DNA of 64,000 nucleotides, taken from positions 87,480-151,479 of IMG/VR virus record IMGVR_UViG_3300002038_000006. One strand, written 5' to 3'. Position 1 is the stretch's first letter. Each line of letters begins with the position of its first letter. The notes beneath the pieces were generated by a model. The model made no database searches. It saw only the letters and a list, made by a program, of their open reading frames with translations, and was not told the DNA's origin. Shown piece by piece: positions 19,765 to 36,068 of the stretch. This DNA comes from a virus. Made by a program: the position numbers and the translations under genes.

Positions 19765-20115
19765 ATGAGCAATCAAACGCTTGAAGACCAAGTAAAACAA
19801 TTACAAAAAACGGTCAAACAGCAAGGTGAACAAATCAACACCTTAGTTACATCTAACCGTAACCTAGGCGGTAACCTGCGCTTCTTACGCGACCTTGTAG
19901 AAGAAAGTGTACACTTGACAGAGCAAACATCTGGTATCGTCGTAGAACACGTTACAACGCTTGATAGCCGTATGAATTCAGTTGGTAGTATCTTCACTGA
20001 TAAAATCAAACGCACATTGAAAGAGATGGGCGAAACCAACTTAATGGAAAACGTAGTAGGTCAAGTTGAGATGGATAGTAACGAACCTGACTTAGACATC
20101 AAAGCACCGGAGTAA
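19765..20115 (+). CDS. coiled-coil protein, first gene of the glycosyltransferase operon
   Basis: Heptad pattern; GGAG RBS before ATG 19765. Confidence 0.65.
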   Translation: MSNQTLEDQVKQLQKTVKQQGEQINTLVTSNRNLGGNLRFLRDLVEESVHLTEQTSGIVVEHVTTLDSRMNSVGSIFTDKIKRTLKEMGETNLMENVVGQVEMDSNEPDLDIKAPE

Positions 20116-20121
20116 CACGCC

Positions 20122-20970
20122 ATGGGATTACTATACGAGAAAACTGTAAAGTTCGATAGTAAGGCCGGTAAGTTAGCACACTCAGGTTTCCTATCACGTT
20201 CAGACGCTATTGCAGAGTCTAACAAGATGTACAAGTATCTTGAGCAACGTTGTAAAGAACTTAAGCGTAAGCTGTCTTACGATTTGTCTTACGATGGATT
20301 CCCTCAGGACTTGATTGTTACTGAAGCATTTGGTGGTCATGGTTGTTTAATCATTCACCCTGCTGACGATGGCTTTACTAACAAGTTATTAACTAACACT
20401 GGTAAAGGTGAACGTGACTTAGACTTCTTGCAAACCAAGAAAGATAAGTATTCTTTATTCGATGCTGAACATCCTGCTACTAAAGTAGTTATCCTACCGG
20501 GTACTAACTTACTTTGCCGTATGTCAATGAACGTCATTAAAGGCATGAATAAGCCTGATGTCTATTTCAAGCCTCATCCAATCACTACTGAGTTTTACAT
20601 TCGTGAAGTTGAAGTAGCTGTTGGTAGAGATAAAGTAATTAACAAACTTGCCTCTGGTGCAAACATTGTTGATAACGCAACTGAACTGTGGGTATCACGT
20701 TCTACTGAACTTGGCTTATACGCTAAGCTTGCTGGTAAGACTGTACACACGTACCGAATCGAATACAAGAACAAAGGTAGTTACTACGGACTATACGACC
20801 AAATACATCGTATTGAAGACGTCCTATCTACTGCACGTTCTGGTGTTATCTTTCCTACTGATGATTACGAAGCTCAGATTGATGAGTTCCTTGCTTACTA
20901 CGAGGATGAAGTTATTAACTACAAGCCGAAAGCTAAGAAGCGTAACAACAAGAAGAAAGGACGTAGATAA
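20122..20970 (+). CDS. KpsS/KpsC-like (capsule synthesis-like) CMP-sugar glycosyltransferase
   Basis: DKY, YFKPHP (HP motif) and RSTELGLYAKLAGKTV, which resembles NSTVGLEALL.GKPV. Confidence 0.6.
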   Translation: MGLLYEKTVKFDSKAGKLAHSGFLSRSDAIAESNKMYKYLEQRCKELKRKLSYDLSYDGFPQDLIVTEAFGGHGCLIIHPADDGFTNKLLTNTGKGERDLDFLQTKKDKYSLFDAEHPATKVVILPGTNLLCRMSMNVIKGMNKPDVYFKPHPITTEFYIREVEVAVGRDKVINKLASGANIVDNATELWVSRSTELGLYAKLAGKTVHTYRIEYKNKGSYYGLYDQIHRIEDVLSTARSGVIFPTDDYEAQIDEFLAYYEDEVINYKPKAKKRNNKKKGRR

Positions 20971-20973
20971 CCA

Positions 20974-33563: not shown

Positions 33564-34292
33564 TTACGGGTTGTGGTTAAGTTGTACCACAGAGTTCTTA
33601 ACGAAACGGATAGCATCATCTAGACTCATCTCATCATATTCTTCAGAGGATGTTAAATCGCTAGAGTAAGTCCAGCCATCTTCAGCTAATCCAAGTTCTG
33701 TGTATTCCACATTACCAGTCTTCTTATCTTTCTTGCTAGTAGCAATTAAAATACTAGCACCATCAAGAGAAGCTTCAGCCCAAGGCATTTCAGTAAAGTT
33801 CTTACGAACGAATACTTTTTCCTGTTGGAATAAAACAAACTCAACTGACTTCTTGTGGTCCCATGTAGCAGAAGCTTTAGTAACGTCTGGAATAACAAGG
33901 TCGGTGAAGACTTCGTAGTTTGTACTTGTTGTCAATGATGTACTATAGACACGTTCAAATACTGGTGCGCCCATAACCATATTGCCACAGAAGTAATTGA
34001 CGTTTTGTGGTAACTTCAGTGCAGTGTCAGCAGGCAGTTCGTTTAATACGTCCACTAACTCAACTTCTACAATCCAAGTCGTTTCAGCGAACTTGGTTGT
34101 CTTGCTAGGAATGAAAGTTACTTCATCAATATAACCAGTTAGGATTTTCTTCCCGCACACTGGCTCTTCTATTTTACATTCCTCACCCTCGTTACGTTTA
34201 AGTAACTCAGCGAATGCTTGGGTTGTTCGGCGTTCAAAGTTAAATATAACCTTGTCACCGTTTACTTCGTAATAGAATGACATAGCGTCCAC
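33564..34292 (-). CDS. hypothetical protein
   Basis: ORF in operon. Confidence 0.6.
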   Translation of the reverse strand: MDAMSFYYEVNGDKVIFNFERRTTQAFAELLKRNEGEECKIEEPVCGKKILTGYIDEVTFIPSKTTKFAETTWIVEVELVDVLNELPADTALKLPQNVNYFCGNMVMGAPVFERVYSTSLTTSTNYEVFTDLVIPDVTKASATWDHKKSVEFVLFQQEKVFVRKNFTEMPWAEASLDGASILIATSKKDKKTGNVEYTELGLAEDGWTYSSDLTSSEEYDEMSLDDAIRFVKNSVVQLNHNP

Positions 34293-34309
34293 TTCTCCCG
34301 ATATATTTT

Positions 34310-35278
34310 TTATTTTTTAACGACGCCAACGACCAACCCGGCGTCTACAACTAATAAGCTCGTAAGCTTTTTATTCTCCATGACTTCCATAGCGTCTCCA
34401 AAACGAATTCTTGGATGACAGCATTCAGGACGTCTAGTCATAGAATCGTAGATATTAGGGTCACTTTGGTTATGTGTCTCTTCTATAAATCTACGAACGT
34501 CGCCATCAGTGATAATTCCTATTACATCGGTAGGTGTACCAATGATAGCTAGACCTAGTTTACCTTTACTCATTTCACACATTAAATCCATTGGATTGGT
34601 ATGCTCACGAACGAAAGGTAAGTTTTCTGTAACCATTACATCTTCTACACGGTGTAATAGCTTTTTACCAAGTGCACCACCCGGATGAAATCTTGCGAAG
34701 TCTTCTGGCTGGAAATCACGTGCTCTTAACAAAGCAACTGTAATAGCATCACCCATTACCATAGCTGCTGTAGTAGAACTAGTAGGAGCAAGTTGTAGAG
34801 GACATGCTTCTTTTGTTACACCAGTTCTTAAACTAACTGTAGCTGCTTTGGCTAGAGGGTTATCGTGATTCTTAGTAAACGAAATAATGACGTTACCATT
34901 GTCCTCAAGGAAAGGTAGTAACTTCAATACTTCTTCTGTTGTCCCCGAATTACTTAGAGCGAGGAAAACATCATTCGGTTGCACCATACCTAAGTCACCA
35001 TGAAAGGCTTCTCCGGGATGCATGAAGAATGAGGGTGTACCTGTAGATGCAAGACTAGATGCTAGTTTCTTACCTACAATACCAGACTTACCCATACCGC
35101 AGACAATTACCCGTCCATCGGTATCTAGGATATGTTTGATAGCTAGATGAAAGTTAGGGGCATCGTCCCTTAGATTCTCAGCCATCTCTTTCAAGCCATC
35201 TATTTCACAGTAGATAGCCTCTAAACCATTTAGGCTAGCCTCTACTACTATATTGTCTAACTCAGTGTTAGTCCGCAT
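34310..35278 (-). CDS. kdsD: D-arabinose-5-phosphate isomerase (KdsD/KpsF/GutQ; SIS + CBS)
   Basis: GMGKSG, STGTPSFFMHPGEAFHGDLG, EACPLQLAPTSSTT, FHPGGALG, CBS pair. Confidence 0.96.
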   Translation of the reverse strand: MRTNTELDNIVVEASLNGLEAIYCEIDGLKEMAENLRDDAPNFHLAIKHILDTDGRVIVCGMGKSGIVGKKLASSLASTGTPSFFMHPGEAFHGDLGMVQPNDVFLALSNSGTTEEVLKLLPFLEDNGNVIISFTKNHDNPLAKAATVSLRTGVTKEACPLQLAPTSSTTAAMVMGDAITVALLRARDFQPEDFARFHPGGALGKKLLHRVEDVMVTENLPFVREHTNPMDLMCEMSKGKLGLAIIGTPTDVIGIITDGDVRRFIEETHNQSDPNIYDSMTRRPECCHPRIRFGDAMEVMENKKLTSLLVVDAGLVVGVVKK

Positions 35279-36068
35279 GACGTTTCCCCATTCTTAATAC
35301 AGCATCATCATAGTCCTGTTGGGTATCTATCCCGTGCTTCGGTTCTATTGCTGCTGTGATAACCTTTATAGACATACCGTTCTCTAATGCCCTTAGCTGT
35401 TCTAAGCCTTCGGTTTTTTCTAAAGTAGACGGTGGTAACTTACTGAACTTCTTAAGAGTTTTGACAGTGTAAGCATAAATACCGACATGTCTGTAATTAT
35501 TATACCCATCCACAGTGTTACGGATGAATGGTGCTTGTCCCCTAGTAAATAGAAGAGCTCTACCATTTACACCTGTGATAACTTTCACTACATTTATATT
35601 GGATACGTCTGAGACATCAGTGATGACAGTTCGCATCGTATAGATGTCTGCATCCCCTGCTTCTGCTGCATAAGCTAATTGCTTTACTAAACATGGGTCT
35701 AGTTCAGGTTCGTCACCTTGAATGTTAAGAACGATAGTGTCGTCCGTTAAGCCCATCTTAATACATGCTTCTAAAACTCTGTCCGTACCTGATGCATGGA
35801 ACGGGTTAGTAAGTACGGATTGTATACCGTGCTTAGTCATTGCGTCTTTAGTAGAGCCGTAATCAACTGCTACCATGAAATTCTTATCTTTAAACCCAGC
35901 TTTCTTACAAACCTGAGCAACGTGCCAAAGAATTGGCTTACCATTGATTGGTAACAATACCTTTCCGGGTAATCTAGAAGAACCTATCCTTGCAGGGACA
36001 ATCGCAACTGTTCCAGCTCTTCTCTTTATTCCCAATACAACTAGTATTGATTCCAGTAACCTTTTCAT
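35268..36068 (-). CDS. kdsB: CMP-Kdo synthetase (KdsB/KpsU)
   Basis: PARIGSSRLPGK, SGTDR, NIQGDEP, RHVGIYAY, LEQLRALE, GIDT; ATG at 36068 with GAGG RBS. Confidence 0.95.
   Translation of the reverse strand: MKRLLESILVVLGIKRRAGTVAIVPARIGSSRLPGKVLLPINGKPILWHVAQVCKKAGFKDKNFMVAVDYGSTKDAMTKHGIQSVLTNPFHASGTDRVLEACIKMGLTDDTIVLNIQGDEPELDPCLVKQLAYAAEAGDADIYTMRTVITDVSDVSNINVVKVITGVNGRALLFTRGQAPFIRNTVDGYNNYRHVGIYAYTVKTLKKFSKLPPSTLEKTEGLEQLRALENGMSIKVITAAIEPKHGIDTQQDYDDAVLRMGKRHAD

Follow-up and report, generated by a model that had tools for sequence, protein, structure and literature searches.

A compact KxHP glycosyltransferase and a Kdo supply pair in a nucleus-forming jumbo phage: a dispersed system that probably decorates virion fibres

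The two sugar operons

The stretch of DNA analyzed here (64,000 nucleotides, referred to as the window; G000:C1:87480-151479) is part of the 218,099-bp IMG/VR virus record IMGVR_UViG_3300002038_000006, which has direct terminal repeats. [quoted passage not shown] A sequence-only reading had described, for the span 19765-36068, a Kdo glycosylation system of a phage with two separate operons. Every open reading frame (ORF) that it listed was found at its coordinates, but the span does not form one locus, as the two operons lie approximately 12 kb apart. The record encodes chimallin, PhuZ tubulin, a multisubunit RNA polymerase, a tail sheath, and a terminase, and was therefore assigned to a nucleus-forming (phiKZ-like) jumbo phage; the presumed phage origin of the window is thereby confirmed by chimallin, PhuZ, the tail sheath, and the terminase. 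The chimallins of cultured phages share no more than about 29-33% identity with that of the record. No near relative was present among 50,697 deposited phage genomes, a megablast search with the operon gave no match, and close relatives were found only among uncultured IMG/VR contigs, namely in the three related records G001 (207,748 bp), G002 (206,117 bp), and G003 (a fragment of 148,210 bp).

The transferase operon starts with the gene of a 116-aa coiled-coil protein (19765-20115, plus strand), which has an ATG start codon with a GGAG ribosome-binding site and gave weak coiled-coil matches in Pfam. After a gap of 6 nt follows the HP gene (20122-20970, plus strand; P0001), encoding the 282-aa HP282, and after a further 3 nt the gene of a 325-aa glycosyltransferase of the GT8 family (20974-21951, plus strand), a retaining family with a GT-A fold. 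The GT8 assignment was based on PF01501 (31.5 bits at a cut-off of 24.3, residues 83-247), and the translation contains D90-T-D92 (DxD) and the G..KPW motif. Its best NCBIfam match was a lipopolysaccharide (LPS) 3-alpha-galactosyltransferase with 26 bits at a cut-off of 461, which rules out an orthologue of that enzyme. Phmmer searches of HP282 and of the GT8 protein against the PDB sequences yielded nothing useful. In three relatives (L005, L007, and L008), and only there, the coiled-coil gene is kept directly upstream of HP (49-85% identity), and in the same three GT8 is kept directly after HP (31-72% identity). The operon had been described with a fourth gene, a membrane peptide. Three relatives keep the other genes, but none of them has a counterpart of this hydrophobic ORF of 45 codons with a GTG start (21952-22089, plus strand), which is, for this reason, probably not a gene, so that three of the four proposed members are borne out by their conservation in jumbo relatives.

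The supply genes are encoded on the minus strand and overlap by 11 nt. The first, kdsB/kpsU (35268-36068), starts with an ATG at 36068 behind a GAGG ribosome-binding site and scored as CMP-Kdo synthetase with two models (NCBIfam NF003952, 239 bits at a cut-off of 193; TIGR00466, 187.2 bits at a cut-off of 155.2), while the PseF and GlmU models scored it far under their cut-offs. It is the sole CTP_transf_3 gene, and hence the sole gene for a CMP-sugar synthetase, in the whole genome, and its product is 37% identical to KpsU of E. coli UTI89. The second, kdsD/kpsF (34310-35278), encodes an arabinose-5-phosphate isomerase (TIGR00393, 327.9 bits at a cut-off of 203.7) that consists of a SIS domain (90.5 bits in Pfam) and two CBS domains (44.9 bits, two stretches); it scored under both the KdsD and the GutQ equivalog cut-offs of NCBIfam and shares 42% identity with KpsF of E. 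coli UTI89. By these curated cut-offs, both genes are predicted to encode bona fide enzymes, and the proposed kdsB-kdsD operon can be retained. Neither kdsA (PF00793) nor kdsC (TIGR01670) was detected in the window, as already noted from the sequence, nor in the whole 218,099-bp record. The two middle steps must therefore be taken over by host enzymes, as in group 2 capsule loci, and the presumed dependence of a genuine KdsD/KdsB pair on host KdsA and KdsC is upheld. Downstream of kdsD and in the same direction lies the gene of a conserved 242-aa protein (33564-34292, minus strand), which has a 42% identical counterpart beside kdsD in G001. No match was found for this protein in Pfam, NCBIfam, or PHROGs; an Atlas search gave no lead, and nothing in it indicated that the ORF substitutes for KdsA or KdsC.

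Fold and motifs of HP282

HP282 had no match in Pfam or NCBIfam and was only recovered by phrog_26179, a PHROG without an assigned function. An exhaustive phmmer search resulted in 174 cluster representatives, from which an alignment of 93 sequences was built. Throughout these 93 relatives, Y110, N129, K150, H152, and P153 are invariant, and D54, K109, G127, E196, K206, Y221, and G241 are nearly so, whereas E68 is invariant in 16 close relatives. On this basis D54, E68, and E196 are regarded as candidate catalytic residues only. A polybasic tail rich in Lys and Arg forms the C-terminus of HP282 and of its close relatives; this tail is restricted to the jumbo-phage clade.

An AlphaFold (AF2) model computed on the 93-sequence alignment reached a mean predicted local distance difference test score (pLDDT) of 93.3 and a predicted template modeling score (pTM) of 0.89. 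When the model was compared with the PDB by Foldseek, the first 16 matches were all retaining Kdo transferases, namely WbbB (GT99), KpsC (GT107), and KrkA (GT140), with E-values of about 1e-4 to 6e-4 and a best probability of 1.00. After re-alignment (VIA), the top 15 of 1000 matches were the same Kdo transferases (Z 9.0-7.6, root-mean-square deviation (rmsd) 3.9-5.0 Å, 191-217 residues), followed by a polysialyltransferase (Z 6.7) and then by generic GT-B enzymes (Z of at most 6.3). A search independent of Foldseek, covering 48,161 representative PDB chains, placed four retaining beta-Kdo transferases at the top (Z 8.8, 8.0, 7.5, and 7.5). The bacterial sialyltransferases of GT38, GT52, and GT80, which have the KxHP motif in common with HP282, reached Z 6.7-4.6, mostly with their C-terminal domain alone. 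Neither T4 beta-glucosyltransferase nor an enzyme of the Maf type turned up in the fold lists, which may miss a distant similarity.

The profile comparisons agree with this picture. The four best matches of the family profile in the PDB were all KpsC, covering the KxHP and the SSxGxE segment (best E 0.004), and hhalign paired the HP family with the N-terminal module of E. coli KpsC at 87% probability over 175 columns (E 4e-6). Pfam Capsule_synth (PF05159) was weakly matched by 5 of the 93 relatives (best E 0.001), but neither by HP282 nor elsewhere in the genome, even at E<=10; PF04413 (WaaA) was likewise absent from the genome at an E-value of 10, and PF07388 was weakly matched by one HP relative. 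Sequence identity between HP282 and the retaining Kdo transferases amounts to only 8-18%.

Retaining Kdo transferases are defined by a (K/R)xHP motif, which binds CMP and is common to sialyltransferases, by a QxxxD motif, and by a general-base Glu; within QxxxD, binding of the Kdo carboxylate falls to the Gln, and the Asp acts as covalent nucleophile (PMC9587256, PMC12887879). HP282 carries the first of these motifs as K150-P-H152-P153, which aligns with KVHP of KpsC. The QxxxD segment corresponds to LPGTNLLCR, in the stretch that follows the C-terminal domain's first strand, where no Asp is conserved; an hhalign alignment with the single KpsC sequence, made without coordinates, places the invariant N129 on KpsC Q156 and leaves D160 in a gap. 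The early remark that QxxxD is not evident in LPGTNLL was thus correct. Since a defining motif is missing, HP282 was not filed under GT99, GT107, or GT140. The structure and profile comparison with GT107 and GT99 that had been suggested consequently leads to a divided result: GT-B Kdo transferases of the KpsC/WbbB type are indeed nearest to HP282, but membership in their families does not hold. HP282 represents a separate, compact family that is predicted to share its structural stock with the retaining Kdo transferases. A CMP-ulosonic acid is probably bound as in these enzymes, while HP282 appears to be incapable of a double displacement. Because the Asp nucleophile is absent, a single displacement (inverting and sialyltransferase-like) is the most likely mechanism, in which D54, E68, or E196 would serve as the base.

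Two further observations concern matches of HP282. Two giant proteins, P0072 (4858 aa) and P0128 (1950 aa), match only residues 179-275 or so of HP282, seven times and four times, respectively, like a repeated half-domain. In BFVD, the structural matches that come next after the phage homologues belong to the algal giant virus Tetraselmis virus 1, from which several KpsC/S-like proteins labeled 'capsule polysaccharide biosynthesis' were listed.

Genes that accompany HP

For the gene associations, viral contigs were surveyed (2.9 million contigs, with 254 HP loci found with a 16-sequence alignment and approximately 111 kdsB-like loci), and neighbors were clustered within three genes on either side of HP for proteins of up to 600 aa. 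G001 and G002 keep all four genes of the system (HP 82-83%, GT8 53-72%, KdsD 66%, and KdsB 50-62% identity), so that the co-occurrence predicted from the sequence is observed in two related genomes; in the G003 fragment, HP and GT8 are retained together with a KdsD-like gene that has diverged. Between G000 and G001, identity is 83% for HP, 66% for KdsD, 53% for GT8, and 50% for KdsB, a pattern that reflects either uneven evolutionary rates or a replacement of the supply genes.

Outside this clade, HP is clustered with kdsA, kdsB, a S-adenosylmethionine (SAM)-dependent methyltransferase, or a cupin gene in four other lineages. The gene order in L102 is Thr/Ser-rich protein, HP, WbuC-like cupin, methyltransferase, an unassigned gene, KdsB, and KdsA. 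L033 and L034 show the order Thr/Ser-rich protein, HP, methyltransferase, and KdsA, and a KdsB-like gene lies 13 kb away on the same contig. In L049 and L108, two fragments of myoviruses whose genes include those for tail sheath and baseplate, HP occurs with a true KdsA (NF003543, 376 bits at a cut-off of 242) and with a fusion of KdsB and methyltransferase (L049:3852-5129 and L108:9055-10332), the fusion gene standing beside KdsA, a WbuC-like cupin, and a CxxCxxCC protein. Homologues of NeuA, NeuB, or NeuC were not found in any HP locus. As HP and kdsB are both rare (about 0.01 shared contigs would be expected), their repeated co-occurrence is far beyond chance, and from these associations we infer Kdo as the donor.

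The methyltransferase has a counterpart in the window that the sequence-only reading had not picked up. At 16813-17511 (minus strand), a putative class I SAM-dependent methyltransferase of 232 aa is encoded, which belongs to the same family (termed c9; phmmer E 5.7e-25 to the L033 protein) and is kept at the same position in G001-G003. Homologues adjoin HP in L009, L010, L033, L034, and L102 and are the partner fused to KdsB in L049 and L108. The family alignment contains SAM motif I (GCG) and DVLEHIP, its profile matched HEN1, CFA synthase, and UbiG in the PDB (E 8e-4 to 9e-3), and the KdsB-fused domain reached 26.9 bits on Methyltransf_23 at a cut-off of 27; the 16813-17511 protein alone had no Pfam match. 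The fusion to KdsB suggests Kdo or CMP-Kdo as the substrate that is methylated. Two other assignments were discarded. The c9 protein of L033 (L033:11144-11728) had been considered as a KdsC phosphatase and was rejected, since the protein alone gave no PDB match and its family profile points to a methyltransferase. A 188-aa ORF at 22145-22711 was rejected as the methyltransferase partner.

The second recurrent neighbor of HP is a long ORF dominated by Thr and Ser. In 55 of 86 HP loci, an ORF of 600-1700 aa with about 60% Ser+Thr (approximately 45% Thr and 15% Ser) ends less than 200 nt upstream of HP on the same strand, while an ORF of this kind is absent from all 83 control loci that lack HP. 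If only loci with at least 2 kb of visible upstream sequence are considered, 49 of 55 have an upstream protein with at least 40% Ser+Thr. The repeats of these proteins follow ...TTTWNTSxSTTTT(W/F/Y)NT..., and 80-90% of the aromatic residues have a Thr at position +2. The adjacency is dominated by one marine clade, as 79 of the 86 loci fall into one cluster at 40% identity, but it is also supported by three other deep lineages and by the arrangement of a paralogue in the jumbo clade described below. Cultured phages of different families fit as well: KVP40.0254 (49% Ser+Thr) lies two genes ahead of the HP gene KVP40.0256, Lullwater gp41 (40% Ser+Thr) is flanked by gp40, which is annotated as tail fibre, and by the HP gene gp42, and in the Vibrio phage D479 (L001 7221-7733) a 170-aa ORF with 44% Ser+Thr is located upstream of the HP homologue. 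The D479 ORF is missing from the annotation of the record, in which small ORFs on the opposite strand are annotated instead.

G000 itself encodes two Thr/Ser-rich proteins (G000:216435-2010 and G000:6374-8368; 50-53% Ser+Thr), which lie outside the window and had thus escaped the earlier description; the jumbo clade is for this reason an exception in appearance only. Only 39 nt behind the first of these putative fibre genes lies a divergent paralogue of HP282 (G000:2049-2828, or L176:2049-2825; hmmsearch E 2e-8, hhalign 96%), in which KPHP has changed to IPKD and the KxHP motif is lost. The same arrangement of a Thr/Ser-rich ORF, a degenerate HP paralogue, and a 325-aa protein is present in G001 and G002. 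Neither Pfam nor PHROGs gave a match for the Thr/Ser-rich proteins or for the small genes that stand around HP in the main marine group. In L017, L018, and L026, genes for GT4 and GT25 enzymes directly follow HP; because other glycosyltransferases follow HP in this manner, as GT8 does here, the product is probably an oligosaccharide.

Between the two operons lie unrelated accessory genes, among them a weak macro-domain match (23239-23688), an SLT lytic transglycosylase (lysozyme; 27135-27734), a non-specific (NS) endonuclease (27834-28610), and a RadC-like JAB protein (30545-31000). Small tail-fibre-like genes stand beside both sugar operons, at 37322-39588 (plus strand) and 17614-18321 (minus strand), comprising DUF1353, DUF4376, and two proteins with weak Mtd_N matches, and a DUF7484/phrog_3179 protein is encoded at 18352-19167. 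At 39641-41663 (minus strand), the genes for dihydrofolate reductase (DHFR) and thymidylate synthase are close together with one small ORF between them. The latter protein (ThyA, 307 aa) reached only the cut-off of TIGR03284 (115.5 at 108.35 bits) and was taken as a real thymidylate synthase and not as a hydroxymethylase.

A possible route to glycosylated fibres

Taken together, HP282, GT8, the methyltransferase, and the KdsD/KdsB pair probably constitute a dispersed glycosylation system by which the Thr/Ser-rich fibres of the virion receive Kdo, or a methylated derivative of it, and in addition a hexose, a reading that we consider slightly better than evenly balanced. Within it, the part of HP282 as an enzyme with the fold and the CMP-binding KxHP motif of the Kdo/sialyl-type GT-B transferases follows from the predicted model and from the alignment of the family. 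The sequence-only reading had left the target open between the virion or its fibres and the LPS or capsule of the host; the adjacency of HP to Thr/Ser-rich genes and the position of the paralogue favor the fibres.

The following route can be envisaged. Phage KdsD would channel ribulose-5-phosphate into arabinose-5-phosphate, free Kdo would be made by KdsA and KdsC of the host, and phage KdsB would convert it to CMP-beta-Kdo, so that the CMP-Kdo pool would rise by a two-gene boost as with KpsF/KpsU in group 2 capsule loci. HP282 would hold CMP-Kdo via K150, H152, and P153, probably with N129 in place of the carboxylate-binding Gln, and transfer the possibly methylated Kdo to the two fibre proteins (G000:216435-2010 and G000:6374-8368), either onto hydroxyls of Ser/Thr or onto a primer sugar. 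This transfer would proceed as a single displacement, and not by the double displacement of KpsC and WbbB, in the cytoplasm and ahead of assembly. GT8 would then add an alpha-linked hexose, the methyltransferase at 16813-17511 would modify the sugar, and the degenerate HP paralogue behind the first fibre gene may serve as a non-catalytic adaptor that binds the fibre. The donor and the acceptor we infer from gene association, while the order of the steps and the stereochemistry are likewise proposed.

Several points weigh against this route. Besides resting both donor and acceptor on gene association, it has to account for the large marine group, i.e., most HP loci, in which no Kdo genes lie within 10 kb and the donor could differ; such loci would draw on the host pool or possibly on another CMP-sugar. 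The Thr/Ser-rich proteins have no family assignment, and the label 'fibre' is derived from gene position. The intact HP282 gene is approximately 100 kb away from the fibre genes, and the copy adjacent to them lacks KxHP. Fibre adjacency is found in 4 of 6 clusters at 40% identity, which limits its phylogenetic independence. For this aligner, Z scores of 8-9 exceed the usual background by no more than a modest margin. Furthermore, the polybasic tail of HP282 and GT8/GT25 partners of the LPS-core type would also suit a lipid-linked acceptor at a membrane.

This last point leads to a remodeling of the host envelope, which we regard as unlikely, though it fares best among the alternatives. Here, HP282 and GT8 would act at the inner membrane and add Kdo and hexose to lipid A-core, a capsule-type anchor, or another lipid-linked glycan, with KdsD and KdsB boosting the donor, and the altered surface would mask receptors on infected cells or debris (superinfection exclusion, or protection of the progeny). 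The nearest structural relatives, KpsC, WbbB, and KrkA, all use lipid-linked glycans; the best NCBIfam match of GT8 is an LPS core galactosyltransferase, L017 has GT25 partners, and the Lys/Arg-rich tail of HP282 and its close relatives could bind acidic phospholipid. However, that tail is restricted to the jumbo-phage clade, no export or flippase genes were seen beside the operon, and the predicted membrane peptide is not conserved. Envelope remodeling also leaves unexplained why HP stands behind Thr/Ser-rich ORFs in 49 of the 55 informative loci and why the paralogue is placed at a fibre gene, even if the cyanophage literature reads such genes in this way (PMC12801897).

It is rather improbable that the genes have non-catalytic or unrelated roles, with HP as a glycosyltransferase-derived assembly or chaperone protein of the fibres and KdsD/KdsB as independent auxiliary metabolic genes that sustain LPS synthesis of the host. 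The clearly degenerate paralogue beside a fibre gene would fit such a role for HP, as would the location of the intact HP and kds genes in separate operons 12 kb apart and the much faster divergence of KdsB than of HP between relatives (50% vs 83% identity). Retained catalysis is nevertheless favored, because K150, H152, P153, and N129 are invariant in 93 diverse members; in addition, four further lineages show Kdo genes in physical clusters with HP, and HP is directly followed by other glycosyltransferases.

Hypermodification of the phage DNA, with sugars placed on modified bases, is highly improbable: a tentative Kdo-5-hydroxymethylcytosine product of a metagenomic phage glycosyltransferase was reported (10.1101/2023.12.21.572611), an arabinose-5-phosphate isomerase acts in the nucleoside diphosphate-arabinose pathways of RB69 and DLP3 for the arabinosylation of 5-hydroxycytosine (PMC13326640), the basic tail of HP282 could bind DNA, and QueC-like and radical SAM genes are found close to HP genes of the KVP40 type, but a Tet/JBP dioxygenase is lacking in the genome, the one ThyA-family gene that it contains was scored as thymidylate synthase and lies near DHFR, the cytidylyltransferase is a true KdsB and not the MurU-like/kinase pair of the arabinose pathway, published DNA glycosyltransferases resemble T4 beta-glucosyltransferase, BshA, and MshA whereas HP282 resembles Kdo transferases, and the DNA of nucleus-forming phages is enclosed by a chimallin shell. 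What the fibre system would share with the phage clusters for DNA glycosylation (Pyle et al. 2023/2024) and with RB69/DLP3 (PMC13326640) is the pairing of sugar-activation genes with a GT-B enzyme, while base-hydroxymethylating or -hydroxylating enzymes are missing here and the nucleotidyltransferase class and the glycosyltransferase subfamily differ.

Compared with known systems, fibre glycosylation by HP282 would combine features of several. HP282 resembles KpsC/KpsS (GT107), WbbB (GT99), and KrkA (GT140) in its modified GT-B fold, these being its best structural matches over approximately 210 residues, and resembles KpsC in the (K/R)xHP motif and the following S-S/T-x-G motif; like kps region 1, HP genes are associated with genes for CMP-Kdo supply. 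Unlike the retaining beta-Kdo transferases, it has neither QxxxD nor a PF05159 match, comprises 282 aa in contrast to 300-400 aa for the Kdo modules of GT99/107/140, and probably acts on a protein by a mechanism that is probably not a double displacement. The dedicated isomerase and CMP-Kdo synthetase without KdsA and KdsC parallel the KpsF/KpsU pair of group 2 capsule loci, with the difference that they are carried by a lytic nucleus-forming phage. Orthologues of KpsS/C (PF05159) were not found in the genome, and KpsMTED were not seen among the annotated neighbors, for which no gene-by-gene search was made.

A protein filament is the acceptor in the Maf/FlmG flagellin systems, in which a transferase for CMP-nonulosonic acids O-glycosylates Ser/Thr residues in the cytoplasm before assembly. 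The transferase family is a different one, and here the sugar would be the eight-carbon Kdo and the target a phage fibre, with no Neu, Pse, or Leg genes linked. Phage glycosyltransferases that decorate their own virion proteins, as proposed here, are described for mycobacteriophages (Freeman et al. 2023, as cited in PMC12801897 and PMC12619734). As presented in these accounts, the hosts are of the Gram-positive type, the targets are the C-termini of capsid and tail-tube proteins, and neither an ulosonic acid nor such a sugar-nucleotide supply is described, in contrast to the hyper Thr/Ser-rich fibres and the Gram-negative marine hosts considered here. In its boldest form, the proposal would be that HP282 founds a new family that O-glycosylates Thr/Ser-rich fibres with Kdo or O-methyl-Kdo, inverting and nucleophile-free although drawn from retaining-Kdo-transferase stock, and that Kdo linked to a protein, and a coat of ulosonic acid on a phage particle, would each be seen here for the first time, widespread in marine phages (254 contigs) of which some have the whole Kdo pathway. 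We put this forward tentatively, as somewhat short of an even chance.

In LPS, Kdo is the sugar proximal to lipid A, and in capsules it serves as a linker or component; we know of no description of Kdo on proteins or on the particles of bacterial viruses. The literature searched contained no description of the HP transferase family, of protein-linked Kdo, or of Thr/Ser-rich phage fibres with a dedicated CMP-sugar transferase; a cyanophage with kdsA and kdsB was presented in 2025 as the first such case (PMC12801897). HP282 offers a natural experiment on the double-displacement Kdo transferases, since it shows the same predicted fold and CMP motif with an Asn for the Gln and without the Asp nucleophile. 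The order of a Thr/Ser-rich fibre gene followed by an HP gene offers a function for phrog_26179, KVP40.0254/0256, Lullwater gp41/gp42, and the Cr30 genes, and because HP genes occur in cultured phages, the idea can be tested in the laboratory now. If it is true, an acidic, host-like sugar on receptor-binding fibres would bear on host recognition, on the protection of the fibres from proteases and grazers, on their stickiness in seawater, and on how phage particles evade recognition. Fibre glycosylation with Kdo would also give a concrete reason for the rare kdsA, kdsB, and kdsD genes in phage genomes.

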